From assembly GCA_050294475.1 (NCBI GenBank), contig JBNKOE010000005.1:11176-75175 (forward strand): a DNA stretch of 64,000 nucleotides. The letters run 5' to 3'. Shown piece after piece: positions 5,232 to 64,000 of the stretch. The stretch is from Algibacter sp. (lineage in GTDB: Bacteria > Bacteroidota > Bacteroidia > Flavobacteriales > Flavobacteriaceae). Below the pieces are notes generated by a model. It was given only the letters and a program-made list of their open reading frames with translations. It did not search any database and was not told where the DNA came from. The position numbers were made by a program, and so were the translations under genes. Within the stretch, counting starts at the first letter, position 1; every line of letters starts with the position of its first letter.

Positions 5232-6032
5232 ATGAATACACCTAACAAGGATACAACTAAAAAGAAAAAATTTAACTACGATAAAGAACTAGCCATATTA
5301 CATGAAGATTTAGTTCATCTTCAAGAATGGATAAAGAAACAAGGTTTAAAAGTGGTTATCATTTTTGAAGGTAGAGATGCCTCTGGCAAAGGAGGCACAA
5401 TTAAACGATTTACCGAACCTTTAAACCCTAGAGTTTGTAAAGTAGTAGCTTTAGGCATTCCTACCGAAAAGGAAAAAACACAATGGTATTTTCAACGTTA
5501 TGTACAGTATTTACCAGCAGCAGGCGAAATGGTGCTTTTTGATAGAAGCTGGTACAATAGAGCAGGTGTTGAAAAAGTTATGGGTTTTTGTACTGATGAA
5601 GAGTATAATGAGTTTTTACGCTCTTGCCCTGAGTTTGAGCGTATGTTAGTGCGGTCTGGAATTATTGTTTTAAAATACTGGTTTTCGGTAAGTGATGAAG
5701 AGCAGGAACGGCGTTTTAAAAACCGTATAAGCAATCCATTAAAACGCTGGAAATTTAGTCCAATGGATTTAGAATCGCGTTCCCGTTGGTTAGAATACTC
5801 TAAAGCAAAAGATAATATGTTTGCACATACTGATACCAAACAAGTACCTTGGTTTGTTGTGAATGCCGATAACAAGAAAAAGGCGCGTTTAAATTGTATT
5901 AGCCATGTTTTAAGTCAGATTCCTCATGAAAAAATGGATTTAAAACCTGTTGAACTTCCTGATTTACCAGACTATAAAAGTTATGTGCGACCACCAATAA
6001 ATTATCAAACGTTTGTTCCTGAGAAATATTGA
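5232..6032 (+). CDS. ppk2: Polyphosphate kinase 2
   Basis: FEGRDASGKGGTIKR Walker A, FDRSWYNRAGVE, WKFSPMD. Confidence 0.96.
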   Translation: MNTPNKDTTKKKKFNYDKELAILHEDLVHLQEWIKKQGLKVVIIFEGRDASGKGGTIKRFTEPLNPRVCKVVALGIPTEKEKTQWYFQRYVQYLPAAGEMVLFDRSWYNRAGVEKVMGFCTDEEYNEFLRSCPEFERMLVRSGIIVLKYWFSVSDEEQERRFKNRISNPLKRWKFSPMDLESRSRWLEYSKAKDNMFAHTDTKQVPWFVVNADNKKKARLNCISHVLSQIPHEKMDLKPVELPDLPDYKSYVRPPINYQTFVPEKY

Positions 6033-6077
6033 ATAAACTTGATTTTGTAAAAATTTTCAGCTACCTTCGTTTAACAT
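5762..6077 (+). repeat. Direct repeat copy 1 (ppk2 3' end plus 45 bp downstream)
   Basis: Matches 8308-8623 at offset 2546 with about 6 mismatches in 316 bp by manual comparison. Confidence 0.95.
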
Positions 6078-6146
6078 TAGCTCTAAAAAAAAGAACTTTC
6101 ACTTCCCACCCACTCCAAGAATAATATTTACGAAAAATGAAATTAT

Positions 6147-6175
6147 TGTCCCAAATAATTGCTAAATTTGGGACA
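6147..6175 (+). promoter_or_regulatory. Inverted-repeat operator overlapping the -7 promoter element of the abiE-like operon
   Basis: TGTCCCAAAT-N9-ATTTGGGACA perfect IR; TAAATTTG (TAnnTTTG) at 6163-6170. Confidence 0.7.
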
Positions 6176-6189
6176 TAAATTATCAAACA

Positions 6190-6783
6190 ATGACTAAATC
6201 AGTTCAAACTAGAATTGAAAACGAAATAAAGTCAATGAAAAAAGGGAGTATTCTATTCCCTTCGAACTTTGATGATATGGGAAATGTTGAAGTTGTAAAG
6301 AAATCATTATTACGACTTGAAAACAAAAAATTCTTAGTAAGACTAGCTCATGGAATCTATTTATACCCAAAACAAGACAAGCTTTTAGGGGTTTTATATC
6401 CGACAATAGAAGAAATTGCAATTGCAATTGCTGAACGAGATAAAGCACGAATTATCCCAACTGGAACAACAGCTCTTAATAAATTAGGATTATCAACTCA
6501 AATTCCAATGAATATTGTTTTCTTAACTGACGGAGCTCCAAGAAATATTGTGGTTGGTAAAAGAACAATAAAATTTAAGCGTACATCTCCAAAAAACTTA
6601 GCTGTAAAAGGAGAAATTACAAGTTTAATTATTCAAGCTCTTAAGGATATAGGAAAGGACAATGTAACAGCAGAGCAATTAGAAAAAATTAAAATACATC
6701 TTGAAAAAGAAAAACAAGAAATAATAGAGCATGATGCTAAACTAGCTCCTGTTTGGATATCAAAAATTATGAAGAATAATTAA
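6190..6783 (+). CDS. DUF6088 / AbiEi-like antitoxin (type IV TA)
   Basis: N-terminal wHTH (KSLLRLENKKFLVRLAHGIYLYP), ALNKLGLSTQIP...FLTDG; directly upstream of an AbiEii-type gene. Confidence 0.8.
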   Translation: MTKSVQTRIENEIKSMKKGSILFPSNFDDMGNVEVVKKSLLRLENKKFLVRLAHGIYLYPKQDKLLGVLYPTIEEIAIAIAERDKARIIPTGTTALNKLGLSTQIPMNIVFLTDGAPRNIVVGKRTIKFKRTSPKNLAVKGEITSLIIQALKDIGKDNVTAEQLEKIKIHLEKEKQEIIEHDAKLAPVWISKIMKNN

Positions 6784-6785
6784 AT

Positions 6786-7784
6786 ATGAAAGCGTTTATA
6801 AATCTTAGCAAAAAAGATAAACTGAACATATTCAATCAAGTCAGTGAAAGAACTGGATTTCCATCTTCTGCTGTTGAAAAAGATTGGTGGGTAACTTTAG
6901 CATTAAATATTATTTTTTCATTGTCTTATTCAAACCATATTGTTTTTAAAGGAGGAACATCTTTGAGTAAAGCATGGAATTTAATTGAACGTTTTTCAGA
7001 AGATATCGACTTGGTAATTGATAGAAAACATTTAGGTTTTGAAGGCGAATTAAGTAAAAATCAAGTTAAAAAATTACGTAAAGCATCTTGTTCCTTTATT
7101 GGAAGTGAATTTTATAAAGATATCAATGATGCTTTAATTAAACTAGGTGTTCCAGATTATGAATTAGTTGTTCAAGAAACAAAAGATACAGATACTGATC
7201 CCTTAGTTATTGAATTACGATATAAATCTTTAACAGAAACATCCGACTATTTAAGACCTAGAGTACTAATAGAAGTTAGTGCACGTTCCTTAATGGAGCC
7301 TGTAGAAAACAAAGCCGTTATTTCTATGGTTTCTGAGGAATTTAAAGAACTTCCCTTTGCAGAAACAGAAGTAACAATACCTGTTGTTTCTCCTAAGCGA
7401 ACCTTTTTGGAGAAGATATTTCTATTACATGAAGAGTTCCAAAAAGACACAAAATTTATACGAGTAGAAAGAATGAGCCGACACTTGTATGATTTAGAAA
7501 AACTTATGGATACAATTCACGGTACAGAAGCTTTGAAAGATGTTAAATTATACAATACAATTGTAACACACAGAAAGAACTTTAATGCCGTAAGAGGAAT
7601 TGACTACGCAAACCATAGCCCTCAATTAATTAATATTTCACCACTAGAAGCAACAATTAAAGAATGGAGAAAAGATTATAAGACCATGCAAGAAAGTATG
7701 TTTTATGGAGGTACCATTAGTTTTGATAAACTAATGGAACGCATTGCAGAGTTGAATACTAGAATTAAAACAATTTCATTATGA
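6786..7784 (+). CDS. AbiEii/AbiGii-family nucleotidyltransferase toxin
   Basis: EKDWWV, VFKGGTSLSK, RFSEDIDL, RTFLEKIFLLHE, RHLYDL motifs. Confidence 0.9.
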   Translation: MKAFINLSKKDKLNIFNQVSERTGFPSSAVEKDWWVTLALNIIFSLSYSNHIVFKGGTSLSKAWNLIERFSEDIDLVIDRKHLGFEGELSKNQVKKLRKASCSFIGSEFYKDINDALIKLGVPDYELVVQETKDTDTDPLVIELRYKSLTETSDYLRPRVLIEVSARSLMEPVENKAVISMVSEEFKELPFAETEVTIPVVSPKRTFLEKIFLLHEEFQKDTKFIRVERMSRHLYDLEKLMDTIHGTEALKDVKLYNTIVTHRKNFNAVRGIDYANHSPQLINISPLEATIKEWRKDYKTMQESMFYGGTISFDKLMERIAELNTRIKTISL

Positions 7785-8228
7785 ATGAAAACGAAATAAG
7801 AGAAGAACTCACCAGAGTTATAGCCGAAGATTCTCAAAACATTGATGAAATTCTAAAACTATCACATAAACTTGCTGCTCTTGATAACGACAGTGTCCGA
7901 TTTAGTGTAGATGTAAGTGTTATTGATAGATTTAGGAACAGAATTGGTTGCGAGACACGAAACTGCTGTTTCTAAATTAATTAAAAATTACTATGATGCT
8001 GATGCAAAATCGGCACCAATTAATTTTTTAAATGTAGATAATATTGGAGGAACTTTAATAATAGAAGATAACGGGAATGGAATAACCAGAGACCAATTAG
8101 TTAATGGTTTCATGAAAATTTCTTCTACTTCAAAAATTCATGAACCCGAATCGCCCATTTTTAAAAGAAAAAGAGCCAGTAAAAAGGAATTGAACGATTT
8201 TAAACACAAAGATCGGGTAATAAACTGA
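7781..8228 (+). pseudogene. Frameshifted, truncated GHKL (HATPase_c_3/MORC-like) ATPase
   Basis: Two ORF pieces join as RFSVDVSVIDR/LGTELV..AVSKLIKNYYDADA..IEDNGNG; the expected GKKGIGRF box has decayed to SKKELNDF and the frame stops soon after. Confidence 0.8.
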
Positions 8229-8307
8229 CGATAATAACACAAACAAAGGAGACTAATTTTGCTCTGAAAGTATTTCAGAAGAATTTGGAGGTATTCGGCT
8301 TTACAGA

Positions 8308-8578
8308 AATGGATTTAAAATCGCGTTCCCGTTGGTTAGAATACTCTAAAGCAAAAGACAATATGTTTGCACATACTGATACCAAACAAGTACCTTGGTT
8401 TGTTGTGAATGCCGATAACAAGAAAAAGGCGCGTTTAAATTGTATTAGCCATGTTTTAAATCAGATTCCTCATGAAAAAATGGATTTAAAACCTGTTGAA
8501 CTTCCTGATTTACCAGACTATAAAAGTTATGTGCGACCACCTATAAATTATCAAACGTTTGTTCCTGAGAAATATTGA
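8308..8578 (+). pseudogene. ppk2: ppk2 3' fragment
   Basis: Encodes the last ~89 aa of Ppk2 (MDLKSRSRW...FVPEKY) without the Walker motifs. Confidence 0.9.
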
Positions 8579-8623
8579 ATAAACTTGATTTTGTAAAAAT
8601 TTTCTACTACCTTCGTTTAACAT
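8308..8623 (+). repeat. Direct repeat copy 2 (duplicated ppk2 3' end)
   Basis: About 98% identical to 5762-6077. Confidence 0.95.
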
Positions 8624-8625
8624 CA

Positions 8626-8662
8626 GATATAAAACATTAAAACAATTTCATATCAAGTTGTT
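8626..8662 (+). other. Degenerate attI-like / secondary insertion site
   Basis: ACAATT-TC-ATATCAAGTTG|TT resembles ACAATT-GTCT-ATATCCAATTG|TT at 63762-63784. Confidence 0.55.
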
Positions 8663-9293
8663 GTAACACATTTAACCAAACCAAGAAACTTAATATTTAT
8701 GAAGAAAATTTTACCAATCATTATTGTCGGAATTATAACTGGAGCAATCGGATTTTTTGCTGGAAAAACAGTTGGATATGACGAAGCTGAAAGAATGCAA
8801 AGTTATCGAAGTGTCGAATCTATTAAATCGGACTTAAAACAACGTGAAACTAAAATGATTTCGACTCTATTAAACGGAACTGCACGAATTGAAACGCGAA
8901 ATGAAGGCGGACTTTTTAGCAGTAAAAAATCGAAATATCTGACTGGTAAAATTCTAAACAACGCTTTAGTTGCGAAAGCAAAAGATGTGAAAGTAATTGT
9001 GACATTTTTATCCAAAACAAAATCGGAAATTGGAAAAGCGGAATTTACTATTTACGAATATATTGAACCTGGAAAGTCGCAATCTTTTGAGAAGAAAGTA
9101 AATGTCTCTCAAGATGTGGCTGAATTTAGCTGGAATATTGTAGATGCAAAAGCGGAATAAAAACGTGTTACAACAATGTATAAAAATAATTGCGGTTTAG
9201 TTCTTAATCAAAGGTAGTTACGTGTTTGATACGTCTGAATTTCCTTCGGAAATTCCTCGCACGCAAACCCGCAACTATTCTTATACGAGACCG
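8661..9293 (+). mobile_element. Solo integron-like gene cassette
   Basis: Starts G|TTGTAACAC (8660-8669), the exact reverse complement of GTGTTACAAC (9165-9174) after its stop codon; ends at G9293|TT. Confidence 0.85.
8699..9160 (+). CDS. Cassette-borne hypothetical membrane-anchored protein (C-terminal Ig-like/FxLYD-like domain possible)
   Basis: N-terminal TM segment; GKILNN..AKDVKVIVTF..YEYIEPGKSQSF pattern. Confidence 0.75.
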   Translation: MKKILPIIIVGIITGAIGFFAGKTVGYDEAERMQSYRSVESIKSDLKQRETKMISTLLNGTARIETRNEGGLFSSKKSKYLTGKILNNALVAKAKDVKVIVTFLSKTKSEIGKAEFTIYEYIEPGKSQSFEKKVNVSQDVAEFSWNIVDAKAE

Positions 9294-9300
9294 TTAAACG
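9165..9300 (+). repeat. attC-like site A
   Basis: TTACAAC-AAT-GTATAAAAATAATTGCGG ... CCGCAACTATTCTTATAC-GAGACC-GTTAAAC; 18-bp stem with 2 mismatches; R' fits GTTRRRY. Confidence 0.85.
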
Positions 9301-9303
9301 AAC

Positions 9304-10002
9304 CTAATAAAATTCAGCCTCAAAAAGCACACTAAAATGTTTCAATAACTTTTCTTTAACCTCAGCTTCATCAACCCTTTGTTGCCCTAACTCTACATTT
9401 AAAGAAGTAACGGCTTTACCACGAATACCACAAGGTATAATATTATCAAAATAACCTAAATCGGCATTTACGTTAAGCGCAAAACCATGCATAGTTACCC
9501 AACGGCTAGCTCGTACACCCATAGCACAAATTTTACGAGCAAATGGTGTACCAACATCTAACCAAACACCTGTTTCACCTGAGCTTCTTTCAGCTTTTAA
9601 ACCATATTCGGCAAGCGTAAGAATAATCATTTCTTCAAGTAAGCGTAAGTATTTATGTATATCGGTAAAAAAGTTTTCTAAATCTAAAATTGGATATCCT
9701 ACAATTTGCCCAGGACCATGATAGGTTATATCGCCTCCCCTATTAATTTTGTAAAAAGTAGCTCCTTTTTCGACAAGTTGTTGCTCGTTTAAAAGCAAAT
9801 TAGATAAATCGCCACTTTTACCCAAAGTGTAAACATGAGGATGCTCTACAAATAAAAAATAATTATTAGTCTTTAAATTAGTATTGTCTTTTCTGTTTTT
9901 AATTTTGGCATCAACAATACCTTTAAACAACTGCTCTTGGTATTCCCAAGTTTGTTTGTAATCATTAAAACCTAAATCTTGCAGTTTAATTTGCTTATTC
10001 AT
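9304..10002 (-). CDS. lipB: Lipoyl(octanoyl) transferase
   Basis: [46 protein letters not shown]. Confidence 0.96.
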
Positions 10003-10031
10003 AGGCTGCAAAATTACAATATTTTTATGTT

Positions 10032-10190
10032 TTAATTCTTCGGATTATTAAGAATAACTAAAGCCGCAATAACACCAGGAACCCAGCCACAAATTGACAA
10101 AATAAAGACAATAATAATAGAGCCACATCCTTTATCTAAAACAGCTAAAGGCGGACAAATAATAGACAGTAAAACTCTCCAGAAACTCAT
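10032..10190 (-). CDS. YqaE/Pmp3-family small membrane protein (52 aa, absent from the ORF track)
   Basis: Manual translation [52 protein letters not shown]; PPLAV and W.PG signature. Confidence 0.88.
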
Positions 10191-10297
10191 GATTTGATTT
10201 ATTTTATTTGATTAATGATACTTACTTGACGTATTAACACTACTAATGTTACAATTTATCATATTCATTTTAAAATAAATTATAGTAGATTAGTAGC

Positions 10298-11350
10298 ATG
10301 TTAAGAAACCTGATTTTGTTGTTATTTTTAATAATGTCTCTTTCTGTAAAAGCACAGTATCATTTTACAGGACGTATAGATAATAAACAATGGCAAAACA
10401 ATGTTTACCTTTCCTTAATTGAAGATTATCGAAAAATTTCTGGGGTTTATTTTGAACAAATTATAGCTAAGGTAAATACCGATAGCTTAGGTTATTTTGA
10501 GTTTTCAGGAAATCAATTAGAAGATGATAACAGAATTTACAGAATTCATGTTGACAATTGTTTTGATAACGAACAAAACAGCAATCATTTTAATGGACAT
10601 TGCAATGATAGTAAAGAAGTTATTTTCATTGCGAAAAACAATGATACCATTGCGTTCCCTTTTTCGTTTGGAAAAGAAATGTTTTGCCAAATTGAATCTA
10701 CCAACAAAAAAGCAACTGCCTTTATTAAAATTGATTCTTTAAAAGATGAAATGAAATTTGCATACAGCGAATTTAGAAGTGAAGCCAACCGAAAACTTAA
10801 TAATAAAAAATGGTTTAAAACATTACAAGATTTTGGTGAAACACAAAACGAACCCATTGCCGAACTTTATACTTATTCATTTTTATCAGATAGAAGAAAC
10901 GATTTTCACAAACATTACCTTGAAGACTTAAAAAACAATCCGTATTATCATAATTTATTAAATCGTTTAATCGAACGCTACCCAAATTCACCTTACACAA
11001 AACAATATCGAGAAGAGTTAAGCTCTGATGAATTTATAATCAATAACAATACATCTACTTCTTCTTTCAACTGGAATTATTTAACTTTCTTTCTATTAGC
11101 AGTTTCGTTAATTATTAATTTTTGGTTTTGGTATACCCAAAAAAAGAATAAAACAATTAGCAAAGCTAAAGAGCAACTTACCAAACAGGAACAAAATATT
11201 CTTAATCTTTTACTTGAAGATAAATCTAATAAAGAAATAGCCGAAGCTGTTTTTGTTAGTGTAAGTACTGTAAAAACACATCTTAACAATATTTACAAAA
11301 AACTGAATGCTCAATCTAGAGACGAAATTAAATCACTATTTAACAGGTAG
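10298..11350 (+). CDS. Membrane-anchored LuxR-type transcriptional regulator
   Basis: Signal peptide, exported domain, TM helix, then LTKQEQNIL..SNKEIAEAVFVSVSTVKTHLNNIYKKL. Confidence 0.85.
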   Translation: MLRNLILLLFLIMSLSVKAQYHFTGRIDNKQWQNNVYLSLIEDYRKISGVYFEQIIAKVNTDSLGYFEFSGNQLEDDNRIYRIHVDNCFDNEQNSNHFNGHCNDSKEVIFIAKNNDTIAFPFSFGKEMFCQIESTNKKATAFIKIDSLKDEMKFAYSEFRSEANRKLNNKKWFKTLQDFGETQNEPIAELYTYSFLSDRRNDFHKHYLEDLKNNPYYHNLLNRLIERYPNSPYTKQYREELSSDEFIINNNTSTSSFNWNYLTFFLLAVSLIINFWFWYTQKKNKTISKAKEQLTKQEQNILNLLLEDKSNKEIAEAVFVSVSTVKTHLNNIYKKLNAQSRDEIKSLFNR

Positions 11351-37945: not shown

Positions 37946-37946
37946 C

Positions 37947-38080
37947 GTATGCTAACACAGTATCAAAAATCGCTAATTTTATCCTAAACCAATGTTAGTA
38001 GCTTTGCTTGCTTACGATTTTACTTCGAAAAATACTCGCACACAAACCCGCACTATTCTTATACAATCACGTTGCATGTA
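37947..38080 (+). repeat. attC-like site B (left arm decayed)
   Basis: TGCTAAC-ACA-GTAT... ; right part TACTTCGAAAAATACTCGCACACAAACCCGCACTATTCTTATAC-AATCAC-GTT closely matches site A. Confidence 0.8.
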
Positions 38081-38101
38081 ATTTGAACAAATTAAATATA
38101 A

Positions 38102-39064
38102 ATGAAAAAATTAAATCTGATTTTATTGGTGTTAATCCCAATATTAAGTTTCGGACAAACTGAAAAAGAAACTAACAAAAAGATTTCTGCTGAATTTGAA
38201 AAACACTTCAATTCAGATGAATATCAAAAGATTTTTGACTTGTTTTCGCCTGAAATGAAAAGTGCCTTACCAATTGAACAAACGACTGACTTTTTAAAAG
38301 GACTGAAAAGTCAGACAGGAAAAATTAAAAAAAGGGAATTTATAAAATATGAGCAGACTTATGCCTCTTATAAGACAATCTTTGAACGAACTATTTTTGC
38401 AGTAAATATATCACTTGACAATAATGCAGAAATCAATGGTCTTTTTGTAAAACCTTTTAAAGAAGATAATCTTCCCAAACTTGAAAGAAATAAAACGAAA
38501 CTGGTTTTGCCGTTTAATAGTGAGTGGACAGTAATTTGGGGCGGAGACACTAAAGAATTAAACTATCACGTAGAAAGCGAAGCTCAAAAAAACGCATTCG
38601 ATATTGTAATTACAGACAAAAACGGAAAAACCTTTAAAACAGACGGAAAAACAAACGAAGATTATTATGCTTTTGGAAAAGAATTTATTGCACCTTGTGA
38701 TGCAGAAGTGGTTTTAGCGGTTGACGGAATAAAAGACAACACACCTGGAGAATTAAATCCTATTTACATTCCAGGAAATACTGTAATTTTAAAAACAGAA
38801 AATGACGAATATTTATTCTTTGCTCATTTCAAACAAAATTCGATTGTCGTAAAACAAGGACAAAAAATAAAACAAGGAGAATTATTAGGGCTTTGTGGAA
38901 ATTCCGGAAATTCTTCAGAAGCTCATTTACATTTCCACATTCAAAATGTGGAAGATATAAACAAAGCGACTGGAGTAAAATGTTATTTTGACGAAATAAT
39001 TGTGAATGGAGAATTGAAAAAAGACTATTCGCCAATAAAAGGAGAAGAAATTAAAAACAAATAA
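38102..39064 (+). CDS. Cassette 1: exported M23 peptidase with N-terminal DUF3887-like domain
   Basis: Signal peptide; AFDIV, FAHFKQ, GNSGNSSEAHLHFH. Confidence 0.85.
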   Translation: MKKLNLILLVLIPILSFGQTEKETNKKISAEFEKHFNSDEYQKIFDLFSPEMKSALPIEQTTDFLKGLKSQTGKIKKREFIKYEQTYASYKTIFERTIFAVNISLDNNAEINGLFVKPFKEDNLPKLERNKTKLVLPFNSEWTVIWGGDTKELNYHVESEAQKNAFDIVITDKNGKTFKTDGKTNEDYYAFGKEFIAPCDAEVVLAVDGIKDNTPGELNPIYIPGNTVILKTENDEYLFFAHFKQNSIVVKQGQKIKQGELLGLCGNSGNSSEAHLHFHIQNVEDINKATGVKCYFDEIIVNGELKKDYSPIKGEEIKNK

Positions 39065-39068
39065 AAAC

Positions 39069-39207
39069 TACTGGCAGCAATGGTTATAAGTAATTGCCTG
39101 TTCTCGCCTACTTCTAAAAATACTCGCAGATTTTTAGCTTAGGTGTGTACTTGCAGAGTTAAGTGCTAGACTACGCAACTACTCATAGCCAAACCATTGG
39201 CGTTAAT
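39069..39207 (+). repeat. attC-like site C (both cores mutated)
   Basis: CTGGCAGC-AAT-GGTTATAAGTAATTGC ... GCAACTACTCATAGCC-AAACC-ATTGGCGTTA; AAC changed to AGC and GTT to ATT. Confidence 0.8.
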
Positions 39208-39242
39208 TTTGGAAACAAACTGCAAAATTGAAAACACATAAG

Positions 39243-40343
39243 ATGAAATATTCATTACTAATAATTATCTTGATTAATACAATATTGAGCTATAGTCAAG
39301 AGATAACCATAGAAAAAATAAAATTAACTGAAACAGTTGATAATCGTTATGTTTCTGAAATCCCTAAAGTAAAAGACTTAACCAATAATAAAAATCCTAT
39401 TGTAGAGAAAATTAATTCTCAGATTCTTGATCGTTTTATGATTAATAGCTTTAATCAAAATGAATTAGAAGAATTTAGATGGTACGAAGTTGAATGTTCA
39501 TTTGAGATAAAAGAGAATATTCTTTATATATCATTTGCAGGAGAGTACTATGGAGCATATCCAAATTATGTTGAAGATGAATTTTATTTTGATTTAAAAA
39601 ATGGGGAGCCTCTAAAATTATCCATTATTCCTTTTCAAGCGTTATTCACATTATCTGGATATCTAGATTTTCTTAACAAATATTGGCTTAAAGGAGTTAA
39701 AAAGAAATTTATAGCTGCTATCGAGTGTGCGGAATTTGAGCCTTACTGTAGTTACTATGACATTTATAATTACAGTGTAAAAGATAATAAATTCTCGATT
39801 TCGCTATCAAATGACTGTTATCCTCACGTAGCTCAGGCATGTTCTCCTTATTATGAAATATCTGTAGAACTTGATACTCTTAAACAATACATAAATGAAC
39901 TTGGAAAATATATCCTTTTAGAAAGCAATTATTTATCAGAAACTCCAATTGAAAAGTTTTTAGAAAATGAGAAATTGAAGAAAGAAACAGAAAACAATTT
40001 ATTCATCTTTGGGAAGATTGACGATAAATATCCTTTTAGTATGGCAATAAATATAGATAATCAAGGAGTAATATCTGGTTACTATTATTATGATTTAAAA
40101 CTTCAAAAACTGGTATTGAAAGGACAAAAAAAAGATAATACTATGCTATTAACCGAGACAATTAACAATAAACAAACTGGATTCTTCGAGCTAAATATTA
40201 GCAATACATACAACTCGGAAAGTTTCTTTTTATATGACTCTAACGGAAATGATAAATACTTGATTGGAAAATGGCTGAATTCTGATAAAACGAAGATTCT
40301 TGACATTAAATTTTCAGAAGTAAAAACAAATGATAAAAACTAA
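39243..40343 (+). CDS. Cassette 2: exported hypothetical protein (RsiV/DUF3298-like region possible)
   Basis: Signal peptide; INSQIL...YISFAGEYYGAYP..FYFDLKNG; stop codon overlaps the core TAACGCCAAC. Confidence 0.7.
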   Translation: MKYSLLIIILINTILSYSQEITIEKIKLTETVDNRYVSEIPKVKDLTNNKNPIVEKINSQILDRFMINSFNQNELEEFRWYEVECSFEIKENILYISFAGEYYGAYPNYVEDEFYFDLKNGEPLKLSIIPFQALFTLSGYLDFLNKYWLKGVKKKFIAAIECAEFEPYCSYYDIYNYSVKDNKFSISLSNDCYPHVAQACSPYYEISVELDTLKQYINELGKYILLESNYLSETPIEKFLENEKLKKETENNLFIFGKIDDKYPFSMAINIDNQGVISGYYYYDLKLQKLVLKGQKKDNTMLLTETINNKQTGFFELNISNTYNSESFFLYDSNGNDKYLIGKWLNSDKTKILDIKFSEVKTNDKN

Positions 40344-40455
40344 CGCCAACACTTAGATGTAGTGCATTCGGGTTCTAGCGGCTTGCGAGCGTTTGTAGCT
40401 CGTAAAAAAAGTAGATATAAACTGATTCGCTAAAAAATTAGATTTACTATAACCC
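40341..40455 (+). repeat. attC-like site D, left part only
   Basis: TAACGCCAAC is the reverse complement of the cassette 2 start (G/A)TTGGCGTTA; no right arm or GTT before the next ORF. Confidence 0.6.
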
Positions 40456-40471
40456 TTAAGACTATATAGAA

Positions 40472-41053
40472 ATGCAAAATGAAATTAAATTAACAACAAA
40501 AAAGATTAAAACGGCACAAAAAATAGGTAATGTCTTTTTTGCCATTATACTTATTTTAAATGTCTGGATTATGATTAAACCTTTAATCGTTAATTTTGAT
40601 CTAAGGGATATTGGGGTGTTTAAGCTTCTTAGAAATAATGAGACATATGTAGTACTTGGTGCATTTGTAATATTACTTGGCGTTCGGTTTTTAGTTATTA
40701 ATTTTCTTGCTATATCAGGAGCTAAAATTATAGGAGATAATATAATTATACAAAAACAATTCAAGCCTGATAAGGCTTACTTGTTTAATCAGATAGTTTC
40801 TATTAATTCTATTGGGTATAGAAATGTGCGATTTTTTAAATTATCGATACAAGACAACAATAAAATTAATGAGTGTTTAATATTTAGCACATATTGTTTG
40901 CCAGAATTTGAAAATAAAAATGTAGAACAGGTTTTGATTAGTTTACAAAAAACAGATAGCAGAAATAAAAATAGTAGTATTGAATTACTCAAAAACATAG
41001 ACATAATAAACATATTTTTAGAATTCAAAAAGAGGTTTTCTTTTAGAAAATGA
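40472..41053 (+). CDS. Cassette 3: hypothetical membrane protein
   Basis: Two TM segments; 193-aa ORF between hairpin sites. Confidence 0.65.
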   Translation: MQNEIKLTTKKIKTAQKIGNVFFAIILILNVWIMIKPLIVNFDLRDIGVFKLLRNNETYVVLGAFVILLGVRFLVINFLAISGAKIIGDNIIIQKQFKPDKAYLFNQIVSINSIGYRNVRFFKLSIQDNNKINECLIFSTYCLPEFENKNVEQVLISLQKTDSRNKNSSIELLKNIDIINIFLEFKKRFSFRK

Positions 41054-41145
41054 TTTAAACCCGAATAATTTGTATGTAAGATGTTTACAATTAAGAAATA
41101 TTGAAAACATATAAGTCTTTCATTTCAACATATCGGAATAACAAC

Positions 41146-41282
41146 AAATCGCTAAGTGCTCATAAATAATATGGCAGCCAGTGGTTTGCGAAGGACTGTT
41201 CTTTTGATTATGTTTGATTCAAATTTGGATAGAAGTTTGGTAAAGTGCCAAACTATTCATAGCACAAAACGTTAGGCTCCAT
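41146..41282 (+). repeat. attC-like site E
   Basis: TCGCTAAG-TGCTCATAAATAATATGGC ... GCCAAACTATTCATAGCA-CAAAAC-GTTAGGC; R' fits GTTRRRY; left core damaged. Confidence 0.72.
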
Positions 41283-41313
41283 GCTAAGAGTCGTACACAT
41301 TGATTAAAAATAT

Positions 41314-42354
41314 ATGAATTACCAAAATTATTTACTCACATACCTTGTCTTTATCCTTTTTTGTGGATGTAATTCTAATAGTTCTCAAAATCGAATTAAT
41401 AATAAGACAAAAGAAATTGAATTAATTAAATCTGTAAAAAAAGATACTATTTCATCTGCAATATTGGATAAAGAAAAAATTTCTTCTACAAAAAACACAA
41501 AGATTCAAGACTTACTTGATAAAGTAGAATTATTGCAAGTTCCTTTAACTTATTCTTTTGAAGACACTTTCAATATTAATGCAATAAAAGAAACAAAGCC
41601 TTTATCTGATGAGGTTTTGGATTTACTGAGTGTTGAAAAAATTCACAATGGAGAATATGATTTTAGGGGAAGGCTTTGGTTGTCATTTCAGCTTAATTTG
41701 TCAAAGAATTTTAAAACCTTGGTTTTTTCTATCGAAGATGGTGGTTCGGGCGAGAGTGTACTTGTTAATTATTCAAATGATTTTAAATTTATTGATTATA
41801 GAAGTATTGCTTATGAAGATTATGCAGAAGGATGGTTCTCGTCTAATTCATTGATTGAAAAAAATAGAATGTTTTTATATAAGGATAGCTATACAGATTA
41901 TCCTGCGGAATACGATACAATATGTTTGGTTATAGATGAATATGGAGGAATAGATACCTTACCTGTTGAAAAAACAACCAAAATAGATAATGCAACAGTA
42001 GATGACACATACAATAATGTTCATGAATCAATTAGGGCGTATAAAAAATTAGAAAATATATTAGTAACAGAGAAGTTTCTAATACGGATAGACAGATTAA
42101 ACGATAAAAGTTATCGTTATGCTTCATGGTCGAAAAATCAAAAAGTATCAGAGAAACCAGATTTGGTATTGTTAAAAGGTGAATATTTAAGAGAAGGAAC
42201 TGGTGGTAATTATAGTTATGAATTTAGTAATGGTAACTATCTTTATCGGTGTTCATTTCAGCCGTTAAGAGAAAGTCAGGCTCCTCCTGCAGTTTTAAGA
42301 GTGTACAAAGACGATGAAGAAATTTTATATCAACCTGCAGAAATAATAAAATAA
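41314..42354 (+). CDS. Cassette 4: hypothetical lipoprotein
   Basis: Lipobox-like FCGC; C-terminal IRID...YRYASW...KPDLVL..G..GTGGN.SYEF.NG.Y.Y domain. Confidence 0.72.
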   Translation: MNYQNYLLTYLVFILFCGCNSNSSQNRINNKTKEIELIKSVKKDTISSAILDKEKISSTKNTKIQDLLDKVELLQVPLTYSFEDTFNINAIKETKPLSDEVLDLLSVEKIHNGEYDFRGRLWLSFQLNLSKNFKTLVFSIEDGGSGESVLVNYSNDFKFIDYRSIAYEDYAEGWFSSNSLIEKNRMFLYKDSYTDYPAEYDTICLVIDEYGGIDTLPVEKTTKIDNATVDDTYNNVHESIRAYKKLENILVTEKFLIRIDRLNDKSYRYASWSKNQKVSEKPDLVLLKGEYLREGTGGNYSYEFSNGNYLYRCSFQPLRESQAPPAVLRVYKDDEEILYQPAEIIK

Positions 42355-42360
42355 TGCACG

Positions 42361-42498
42361 AGATTACAACACTTTATAAATTTAATTACGGGTATACTTA
42401 AATTGGCGGCTTTGTCCATTTACTGTTCCTTTTGTTTATCTGAACAAAGAAACGCTTCAAAATTCGCAACGTCAATTTATAAATAATCGTTATGTTTC
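42361..42498 (+). repeat. attC-like site F
   Basis: ATTACAAC-ACT-TTATAAATTTAATTACG ... CGCAACGTCAATTTATAA-ATAATC-GTTATGT. Confidence 0.78.
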
Positions 42499-63051: not shown

Positions 63052-63449
63052 AAAAGAAAGGAGTATATTAAAAAGCACATATCTTTTCTAAGATTTAATC
63101 TTGTAAGTTTTCAATTTTGAAACATTTTAAACCGAGTAAATATATATAATATAAATGCATAAGCAAAGTGGATAACAAAAAAAAAGCGATATTTCTATCC
63201 TACCAATTTAATTTGAAATTTCCAGTTTTTAACCCATTACCTGTAACTGGTAATTTAATAGTTCCTATTTCATTTAAAGGTTAAACTATCACATAAATAT
63301 TGTAGACAGAACACATCATGCCATAGTTGAAACTGAGTGTTTTTTAACAAGATATTTATTGTTTAACTATTTAAATTTCATTTTCTAATTTACTCTACCA
63401 CCTTCAAATTTTTTCACTACGTGGAATTATCCAATGACCCTGTGTATAA

Positions 63450-63740
63450 AATCACAAAGAATACTGTCCCAACAAATATCTATTTGAAGGACAAAAAGGA
63501 AACAAATATAGTGTTACAAGTGTTTTAAATATTATTTCTACAGCAGCTAAAAAAGCTGGAATTTATAAAAAAGTAACACCACACATGCTAAGGCATAGTT
63601 TTGCGACACACCTATTAGAAAACGGAACAGATATTAGGCATATACAAATATTACTAGGACATAGTTCTACTAAAACGACAGAAATTTACACACATGTAGC
63701 AAATAAATCGTTTATGGAAATAAAAGATTTACTATCTTAG
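63450..63740 (+). pseudogene. 5'-truncated tyrosine recombinase (integron-like integrase)
   Basis: Manual translation [19 protein letters not shown]...[42 protein letters not shown]; in-frame TAA at 63447; absent from the ORF track. Confidence 0.9.
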
Positions 63741-63752
63741 TTTTTTATAATG

Positions 63753-63793
63753 TGGATATAGACAATTGTCTATATCCAATTGTTGCCAGTAAT
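63753..63793 (+). other. Candidate attI-like recombination site
   Basis: Perfect 26-bp palindrome TGGATATAGACAATTGTCTATATCCA, then ATTG|TTGCCAGTAAT; G at 63782, 42 nt after the integrase stop. Confidence 0.65.
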
Positions 63794-63807
63794 GTAAACC
63801 AATCTTC

Positions 63808-64000
63808 ATGCTGAAAGGATTATTTAAGAAAAAAACACCTGTAGAAAAGTTTATGGCTCATTTGGATAGAATTTTCCAAACCGAACCTGAATATTACAAA
63901 GAAGAATCAGAAACGGATGGAATTGCTGGAGTTACAAGCATAGTTTATAAAGATATTCCTGAAAAAGGAATGATAACTGGAATTACATACGGACTTTCAC
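63808..64000 (+). CDS. First-cassette ORF, partial; SUFU-like (suppressor-of-fused domain) protein possible
   Basis: MLKGLFKKKTPVEKFMAHLDRIF...YKDIPEKGMITGITYGLS runs off the window; the TYGLS motif suggests SUFU. Confidence 0.55.
   Translation, partial: MLKGLFKKKTPVEKFMAHLDRIFQTEPEYYKEESETDGIAGVTSIVYKDIPEKGMITGITYGLS

Follow-up and report, generated by a model that had tools for sequence, protein, structure and literature searches.

A truncated XerA-like recombinase at the probable head of an integron-like cassette array in a Flavobacteriaceae chromosome

The 64-kb window (the whole stretch of DNA that was analysed) carries near its end the last part of a tyrosine recombinase gene, followed by the start of a cassette. 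This gene end is best explained as the dead 3' part of a recombinase which probably stood at the head of an integron-like cassette array in a Flavobacteriaceae chromosome, where it physically still is. Intact relatives of this recombinase across Bacteroidota, which are not integron integrases (IntI), were found directly upstream of cassette arrays, and integron-like capture therefore seems to work without IntI.

The recombinase remnant and its family

A full-length tyrosine recombinase of this type has about 375 residues, and the remnant encodes only the 95 at the C-terminus. Its nearest relatives belong to the Flavobacteriaceae (Winogradskyella, Cellulophaga), and the closest full-length one is a protein of 375 aa from Winogradskyella ursingii (locus L004). 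In a tblastn search of the whole window, residues 281-375 of the latter matched positions 63453-63737 with 81% identity (E 3.5e-46), directly followed by the stop codon at 63738-63740. None of the other 280 residues was found to be encoded upstream or elsewhere in the entire 64-kb window by the same search. The remnant was also detected with Pfam PF00589 (E 9.6e-25), covering positions 93-170 of the 172 of the profile. A preliminary description had considered the catalytic C-terminus as intact. This holds for the last three catalytic residues, with HMLR (HxxR) at 63582-63593, LLGH at 63651-63662 and YTHV at 63687-63698, but Arg-I and the beta-hairpin Lys fall within the missing part. The remnant therefore cannot be active alone, and the recombinase copy of the window is certainly an inactive remnant on its own.

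Upstream of the remnant, 480 nt of non-coding sequence are followed by uxaC on the opposite strand, and the contigs which carry uxaC all end within the remnant or upstream of it. With 30.1% GC the window is AT-rich, and a contig of assembly GCA_050287905.1 is nearly identical to it. The sequence just 5' of the truncation point was compared by eye with the attC-like sites described below and appears to resemble the 5' half of such a site (R''-spacer-L''). It is multi-copy in the reads, and it contains the 9-mer CCAATGACC, which also precedes a second truncated copy in another genome (locus L089). The features of the window are collected in Table 1.

Table 1. Features of the recombinase remnant, the attI-like and attC-like sites and the cassettes in the window
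Feature	Position	Strand	Evidence and remarks
Short attC-like hairpin site S1, R'' CTTCGTTTAAC ... CAAGTTG|	8611-8669	+	19.6 bits; received cassette A
Cassette A, start G|TTGTAACAC	8660-9302	+	ORF 8699-9160; ends in attC-like site 9164-9302 (covariance model, 67.3 bits, E 7.6e-15)
attC-like site, first of a partly decayed array	37946-38080	+	35.5 bits, E 6.4e-7
attC-like site, best score in the window	39068-39205	+	97.2 bits, E 2.5e-22
Weaker attC-like candidate	41146-41280		Covariance model, 9.8 bits
attC-like site closing the array	42360-42498	+	40.4 bits, E 4e-8
Junction sequence TGGAATTATCCAATGACCCTGTGTATAAAATC just 5' of the truncation point	63423-63452	+	Compared by eye with attC-like sites; 9-mer search
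5'-truncated tyrosine recombinase remnant	63453-63740	+	Last 95 codons and stop; tblastn, Pfam, NCBIfam, motif coordinates
Perfect 13+13 palindrome TGGATATAGACAA|TTGTCTATATCCA, attI-like hairpin	63753-63778	.	4 nt before the putative crossover G; DNA fold -8.7 kcal/mol, z -4.8, 0/200 shuffles as good
Core AATTG|TTGCCAGTAATG (AATTG|TTGCC)	63779-63794	+	AATTG|TT conserved in L004, L005, L086, L089 and L037
Start of the first cassette, N-terminus of the SUFU family	63783-64000	+	Homologs P0121 and P0122; ORF from 63808, runs off the window

Read data indicated several copies of the remnant region. In three runs (base depth 67, 25 and 19) the depth was 2-9 fold higher over positions 63344-63790, and the assembly graph was shattered. 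One copy in the reads extends 5' of 63454 with CAAGTATATTAAAAGATTTACAAAAATATT, which encodes ..SILKDLQKYY, i.e. normal upstream coding sequence. The organism thus has a longer, possibly intact paralogue. A further copy agrees with positions 63423-63522 and diverges after them. Several paralogues of the same genome, 90-99% identical, were present in the reads. Inactivated recombinases are frequent in the family, either by frameshift (L086, L025 and L012) or by truncation (L018, L089 and L044), and the catalytic residues of one member (P0010) are decayed. Four substitutions at the contig end of L001 were left out as evidence of decay, since this contig end probably runs into a paralogue.

The affiliation of the recombinase was investigated with profile models. 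In the remnant, the integron-integrase model TIGR02249 aligned from residue 23 only, compared to residue 3 for the models of XerA, XerD and XerC; the scores were 92 bits with TIGR02249 and 61 bits with NF011946. Scoring with the integron-integrase models, as proposed in the preliminary description, placed the full-length relatives below both cut-offs. They obtained 196-215 bits with TIGR02249 (cut-off 265), in two separate stretches which skip roughly model positions 182-244, and 123-136 bits with NF011946 (cut-off 435). The XerC/XerD models (TIGR02224/TIGR02225) gave about 180-212 bits (205 vs 335 and 212 vs 330). The proteins of L004, L005 and L011 reached 227-243 bits with the XerA model NF040815, above its cut-off of 220, although this model covers only residues 108-368 of the family proteins.

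The additional domain of IntI comprises about 35-45 aa at patch III and separates the beta-hairpin region from the HxxR helix. It is required for attC recombination and recognises extrahelical bases in folded attC sites. The earlier claim that this segment is shorter here and devoid of the IntI patch was borne out by the late or split alignment of TIGR02249 and by comparison with the crystallised VchIntIA (2A3V). In this alignment the 27 aa from query residue 279 to 306 are opposite 70 aa of VchIntIA (residues 179-249), so that about 43 residues are absent where IntI holds the additional domain. The alignment to the archaeal XerA 4A8E was colinear (E 2.9e-46), and 4A8E and 5HXY were the best matches among solved structures. 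At the sequence level, the family recombinase is 30% identical to IntI1, and the core of the family is 40-42% identical to archaeal XerA-like proteins.

The full-length relatives are extended at the N-terminus by an extra domain (about 75-105 residues); in all close ones, some 105 residues without any Pfam family precede the Xer-like core. In the AlphaFold model of one of them (P0141, mean pLDDT 82.9), the first 75 residues fold with confidence into a beta-beta-alpha-beta-beta-alpha-beta domain, which is followed by a disordered linker (residues 76-91) and by the CB and CAT domains. XerA 5HXY and IntI 2A3V ranked first when this model was submitted to Foldseek. A profile search delivered at least 7,993 family clusters at 90% identity (E<1e-20), named in databases as 'site-specific integrase', 'XerD' or 'site-specific tyrosine recombinase/integron integrase'. 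The 120 matches listed were unnamed or MAG proteins, with no named Bacteroides fragilis protein among them.

In a neighbour-joining tree with 500 bootstraps and IntI1 as the only IntI, the canonical XerC/D proteins (E. coli, Firmicutes and Flavobacterium XerD) formed a separate clade in 100% of the replicates. The supports among the family, the XerA-like proteins (archaeal, CPR) and IntI1 were only 4-38% in this tree with its single IntI. The tree of IntI and Xer proteins suggested earlier is therefore conclusive on one side only: the lineage is XerA-like, not XerC/D and not demonstrably IntI, and its separation is secure towards XerC/D but not towards a sister relation to IntI. Scores below the XerC/D cut-offs, the full bootstrap split, the extra domain and the multi-copy occurrence also distinguish the homologs from plain XerC/D genes in conserved synteny.

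The attI-like site and the cassette arrays of relatives

The candidate recombination site which the preliminary description had placed downstream of the stop codon proved to be real: a perfect palindrome is followed by the core AATTG|TT. From the sequence, the crossover would be located between G 63782 and T 63783. DNA similarity between the window and L004 reaches 58 nt beyond the stop codon, across hairpin and core, and the covariance model described below gave a weak match over the attI-like site (63741-63792). The same order of hairpin, 4-7 nt and G|TT was found in L004, L005, L086, L089, L006, L011 and L037. While the outer stem GGATA..TATCC is conserved, the inner stem shows compensatory changes, with TAGACA/TGTCTA in the window, GCATC/GATGC in L089, TACGC/GCGTA in L086 and AACGC/GCGTT in L005. 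The first crossover point of the relatives lies 40-110 nt past the stop codon. The attI-like hairpin has no T-run and is therefore not a typical terminator. This feature, together with the fixed distance of 4-7 nt to G|TT, led to the rejection of the hairpin as a terminator only.

The ATG of the first cassette is located 25 nt past G|TT, as in other cassettes, and the window ends 218 nt into this cassette. Two relatives of its ORF were found, both frameshifted, one in a metagenome (L084) and the other on a 1.4-kb contig. The continuation of the ORF in L084 carries PF05076, and the SUFU family is of the immunity type. In L084 the cassette start G|TTGCCAGTAATGTAAACC is preceded by another sequence than in the window, and the window and L084 part exactly at G|TT. 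The R'' predicted for the first cassette, i.e. the complement of its start GTTGCCAGTA (..CATTACTGGCAAC), had no match in the window besides the start itself. The ORF at 63808 is co-directional with the recombinase, as stated in the preliminary description. This reverse of the classical intI-attI layout is uncommon, but precedents exist in true integrons: archaeal attI sites have been described immediately downstream of intI, and the IntIs of Spirochaetota are reverse-oriented (PMC9668308).

Surveying the sequences 3' of the homologs, as had been recommended, revealed a hairpin with a G|TT core followed by cassette arrays. In L004, eight co-directional ORFs are separated by repeats of about 140 nt. 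Arrays were searched with a chain rule, in which a cassette starts with GTTxxxxxx, the exact reverse complement xxxxxxAAC follows 150-6000 nt downstream, and the next GTT is found within 25-320 nt. The chains comprised 5 cassettes in L004, 6 in L005, 4 in L006, 7 in L011, 5 in L036, 6 in L086 and 6 in L089, with an exact 9-10 nt reverse complement between start and R''. Chains of 2-3 were obtained in five further loci, compared to 0-1 in the upstream control regions. The rule reads the same after reverse complementing, and a control on the reverse strand was therefore set aside. No chain was detected by this test in L087 and L084, of which L087 has one match to the covariance model. Four loci with family genes (L007, L021, L022 and L046) displayed neither a chain nor a covariance-model match; they contain either other types of sites or genes without arrays.

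Since the chain test selects what it finds, it was repeated on previously unused loci with sites defined by the covariance model. In four loci outside of model building and chains (L073, L045, L044 and L089), a cassette start and its own R'' agreed at 5.9 of the 7 variable positions, and 14 of the 17 pairs matched at 6 or more. The R'' and R' boxes of the same site agreed at 2.6 of 7 positions, and all other pairs at 2.7 of 7, with 3.9% of them matching at 6 or more. The complementarity between own start and own R'' is therefore taken as the trace left by circular cassettes which recombine at G|TT, as in integrons. Three Bacteroidales/Bacteroidia loci also fit the rule with complementarities of 13-20 nt, and the arrangement holds in loci from Flavobacteriia, Cytophagia and Bacteroidia/Bacteroidales. 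A single 10-mer pair of start and R'' is not significant alone, as 33 such pairs per strand occur in the window; hence the claims made here rest on chains, on covariance-model sites and on longer complementarity.

The cassettes are compact, and their ORFs are co-directional in 61 of 64 cases and start 22-48 nt past G|TT. Their products include HaeII and MmeI-type restriction enzymes, proteins with a beta-lactamase fold, DUF488, NERD, NB-ARC, Imm33-like, SUFU and SOD proteins, and many unknowns.

attC-like sites in relatives and in the window

The intergenic repeats follow an attC-like layout, which consists of an R'' box, a short unpaired spacer, an L'' box, a variable loop, an L' box, a longer spacer and an R' box with G|TT. 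An alignment of 15 sites from three arrays yielded a consensus with the R box YAAC/GTTR, unpaired spacers of 3 nt on the 5' side and 6 nt on the 3' side, and an L helix of 14 bp whose 5' arm carries two bulges, followed by a variable loop. In this alignment 93.3% of the cells were paired, compared to 81.8% after shuffling (0/500 shuffles as high), and the covariation score was 0.294 vs 0.096. Slid registers paired at 24-39% only, and 8 pairs showed compensatory changes on both sides. The sites are 59-240 nt long.

A covariance model built from the sites gave 60 matches at E<0.01 in the loci examined. Almost all of them are on the recombinase strand and 3' of family genes, in 18 loci. The recombinase loci of XerD, Firmicutes, archaea and CPR together produced one weak match, and no match was found adjacent to the Flavobacterium XerD genes. 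An Rfam scan of the L004 array matched no family, suggesting that attC is apparently absent from Rfam.

Five attC-like sites and one clean cassette insertion were identified in the window with the covariance model. The insertion is cassette A, whose ORF encodes a protein of 153 aa without Pfam match. The R'' GTGTTACAAC of the site at its end complements the start of the cassette, and the same site ends with G|TTAAACGAAC, the complement of the R'' of S1. These boundary complementarities show an insertion at the G|TT of a resident hairpin. S1 overlaps an 82-nt unit (8581-8662) present in about 20 copies per genome (read depth 1315 vs 67), and the copies of this S1-type unit diverge directly after GTT. 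The region 37946-42498 represents an older, partly decayed array with mutated R boxes and no adjacent recombinase; its best-scoring site has both R boxes mutated (AAC to AGC and GTT to ATT).

Explanations considered and relation to known systems

By analogy with integron integrases, the intact enzyme would excise circular cassettes by recombination of two attC-like sites, and strand exchange at G|TT would insert the circles into the attI-like site or into other hairpin sites. The folded site would probably be recognised through its structure, and the N-terminal domain may substitute for the missing IntI patch. The enzyme of the window, truncated after codon ~280, cannot act, but a longer paralogue in the same genome may service the array in trans. 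Adjacency to the cassettes suggests that the family recombinase is the catalyst, and its substrate would be single-stranded and folded; palindromic sites would also fit a double-strand, dif-like mechanism. The earlier proposal that a separate XerC/D-like lineage handles attC-like hairpins is supported by association and covariation as far as the handling is concerned, but the lineage is XerA-like and not XerC/D-like. In a broader form, the proposal reads that a phylum-wide XerA-like family runs true integron-type capture on folded attC-like sites without the IntI patch, with the N-terminal domain in its place. We consider this slightly better than an even bet.

The cassettes could be real and yet be moved by another enzyme, either an IntI encoded elsewhere or the housekeeping XerC/D, with the adjacent recombinase belonging to a different element and the hairpin being its terminator. 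All evidence on catalysis is associative, the L004 array adjoins a second, unrelated integrase, and cassettes in the window also lie far from any recombinase. Nevertheless, the order of recombinase, hairpin, G|TT and array was observed in at least 18 loci from several classes, the first crossover lies 40-110 nt past the stop codon, the hairpin lacks a T-run and keeps its distance to G|TT, hardly any IntI was reported from Bacteroidetes in IntegronFinder surveys (PMC9024848), and attC-like sites do not adjoin the Flavobacterium XerD loci, all of which makes such a division of labour improbable. An ordinary integrase remnant (phage, ICE or IS-associated) or the remains of a chromosome-dimer Xer gene, lying beside unrelated neighbours and with G|TT and palindrome occurring by chance, was judged to be very improbable. 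Tyrosine-recombinase pseudogenes are common and the window shows a single partial ORF downstream, but such a reading conflicts with the similarity to L004 across hairpin and core, with the conservation of the hairpin with compensatory changes in at least seven loci, with the junction in L084 exactly at G|TT of the same cassette start, and with the fact that the close full-length relatives all head arrays. Shufflon or invertase and IS91-associated recombinase readings were also considered and rejected.

The fragment itself could be under selection, as a short protein (a trans-acting or dominant-negative C-terminal piece) or as a DNA module forming part of an extended attI-like site, and this would explain why such fragments recur. 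Its frame is open for 95 codons. The L089 fragment, located in another genome directly after tRNA-Gly and tRNA-Leu, is cut within 7 codons of the breakpoint in the window and preceded by the same 9-mer, forms an in-frame ORF of 91 aa and heads a six-cassette array. A comparison of the two fragments gave a dN/dS of 0.075 at a dS of 1.57, and the best 120 database matches to the remnant are all 68-160 aa long. Against selection, the only in-frame ATG of the remnant gives 51 aa, the ATG conserved in CCAATGACC is out of frame in the window, most of the short database matches stem from contigs <5 kb or represent one half of a frameshifted gene (L086), and the catalytic residues of P0010 are decayed. 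As paralogues 90-99% identical occur in the genome, gene conversion or recent duplication suffices for the low dN/dS. The shared breakpoint may result from gene conversion from intact paralogues, from selection of the fragment or from a junction made by the recombinase. Overall, selection of the fragment was regarded as rather unlikely, and the dead end of a recombinase gene at the head of an array is retained as the explanation.

Integrons (IntI, attI and attC, including Mazel-type sedentary chromosomal integrons and CALINs) likewise combine a recombinase with compact, mostly co-directional and promoterless-looking cassettes. The G|TT cassette boundaries and an R'' complementing the start of its own cassette are the same in the relatives and in cassette A; beside the remnant, only the cassette start is visible. 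As in integrons, the sites are imperfect hairpins defined by structure, with unpaired spacer, one-arm bulges and variable loop, as seen from the consensus with its compensatory changes and from the shuffle and slide controls. Recombinases are often inactivated, arrays without an adjacent recombinase occur, and the cargo is mixed (immunity, restriction, hydrolases and unknowns) in both cases. The textbook boxes RYYYAAC and GTTRRRY correspond here to R'' ..YAAC and R' GTTR.., and L013, one of the Bacteroidales/Bacteroidia loci, reads GTGCCTAAC and GTTAGGCAC. In contrast to integrons, the family recombinase has no IntI-specific additional domain, scores below the IntI HMM cut-offs and carries an N-terminal domain absent from IntI. 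The site follows the 3' end of the gene and the array runs in the same direction, compared to the divergent arrangement of classical integrons, to which there are known exceptions with reverse orientation. A hairpin also forms the attI-like site, and the R-box complementarity is longer (9-20 nt). Archaeal integrons retain the IntI domain (PMC9668308).

The family resembles XerA in its colinear CB and CAT core and in scores above the XerA cut-off. Unlike XerA, XerC and XerD, the family has an extra N-terminal domain, occurs in multiple copies, is often found as pseudogenes and adjoins cassette arrays, whereas Xer acts at a single dif site. XerC and XerD are two-domain proteins of about 300 aa, present in single copy and scoring above the model cut-offs, from which the family departs by its scores, its extra domain and the 2-9x read depth.

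The closest published system is rAID-1 of Bacteroidales (Ross 2019, bioRxiv 10.1101/471110; PMC12247911), from the same phylum. It also consists of a 5' 'XerD-family' recombinase followed by short co-directional genes, and its cargo includes polymorphic-toxin immunity families, to be compared with the SUFU protein of the first cassette and the Imm33-like protein of a relative. The definition of rAID-1 is operational, i.e. more than 44% identity to B. fragilis BF9343_RS08045, Bacteroidales hosts and immunity cargo (10.1101/471110). At least two co-directional genes, a motif 3' of the stop codon and intergenic repeats, as described for rAID-1, were present in the relatives; the window shows the motif and one partial gene. 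However, the window organism and its nearest relatives belong to the Flavobacteriaceae, and the cargo of the flavobacterial arrays is mixed and much broader (including SOD, NB-ARC, beta-lactamase-fold proteins and HaeII and MmeI-type restriction enzymes), with only some immunity families. By host and cargo, the system of the window thus falls outside the operational definition of rAID-1. The family members of the window organism are 39-45% identical to the Bacteroidales members compared, and the Bacteroidales members studied obey the same cassette rule. A term search of both rAID papers (10.1101/471110, PMC12247911) found no passage on the G|TT crossover, the rule on own start and R'' or structural covariation, and in PMC12247911 no mention of integron, attC, hairpin, excision or circular forms. 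A literature search found no paper joining attC-like sites with Bacteroidota recombinases.

Integron biology rests on IntI, and surveys therefore score Bacteroidota as almost integron-free (PMC9024848). The data presented here link the same cassette logic to another recombinase family, which is very abundant in this phylum. The element of the window is a decayed array head, and its value is that of a pointer to this recombinase family. If the proposed role of the family is true, it would provide a second, independent model for structure-specific single-strand recombination and would explain mechanistically the rAID immunity arrays found in gut Bacteroidales, and rAID-1 would be one specialised branch of a XerA-like capture family. 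Marine and gut Bacteroidota would also offer a large and so far unsearched stock of mobile cassettes, with restriction enzymes, immunity proteins and hydrolases as cargo. Integron-like capture would then either predate IntI by far or have evolved twice.

Recombinase fragments and an array without an adjoining recombinase

The cassette array of the window without an adjoining recombinase gene encodes an M23 peptidase/DUF3887 protein and three proteins without a Pfam match, and attC-like sites are located between its ORFs. Since mutations (AAC to AGC, GTT to ATT) have altered several of its R boxes, this array looks fossilised.

A second truncated fragment of the XerA-like recombinase was identified in another genome. 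It heads six cassettes, is immediately preceded by tRNA-Gly and tRNA-Leu, and has the junction 9-mer CCAATGACC in common with the window. With a 91-aa recombinase fragment as the query, all 120 best database matches are short (68–160 aa), and most of them derive from contigs below 5 kb, which is consistent with assemblies being interrupted within a gene that is present in several copies. A few of the 120 come from complete genomes, where each represents one half of a frameshifted gene. A tandem arrangement was observed in an Ichthyobacteriaceae MAG (L044, 3401-10858), where three to four recombinase gene copies or fragments occur in a single array.

Coordinates of the features described in this part
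Feature	Locus	Position	Details
Array without adjoining recombinase	Window	37946-42498	Four ORFs, + strand
Truncated recombinase fragment	L089 (GCA_947488435.1)	9700-10276	91-aa ORF
Region with family recombinase, co-directional GNAT gene, reverse transcriptase and attC-like match	L087	6870-10600	Chondrinema litorale plasmid NZ_CP111070.1, 15.4 kb
Insertion	Window	6063-8623	~2.5 kb, 3' of ppk2 (5232-6032)
DUF6088 and AbiEii toxin	Window	6190-7784	Type IV TA, inside the insertion

The ppk2 insertion and the short site S1

The insertion adjoining ppk2 carries a second copy of the 3' end of this gene, and a direct repeat of ~58 nt is present (6020-6077 and 8566-8623). It looks like an integrative element targeting the ppk2 3' end.

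The 82-nt hairpin unit at 8581-8662 (short attC-like site S1) was covered by reads at ~20 times the chromosomal depth in sequencing run X1. The sequences of its copies part right after G|TT. This unit may represent a second, short class of attC-like sites or a dispersed landing pad.

Reverse transcriptase and integrase genes in L087 and L004

On the Chondrinema plasmid, a group II intron reverse transcriptase is encoded downstream of the family recombinase and the GNAT gene on the opposite strand, just ahead of an attC-like match (10454-10592). This neighbourhood is reminiscent of integrons, in which group IIC introns target attC sites. The Winogradskyella array (L004) adjoins a second, unrelated tyrosine integrase of 443 aa and small phage-like genes (6124-7455), and may therefore be carried on a larger integrated element.
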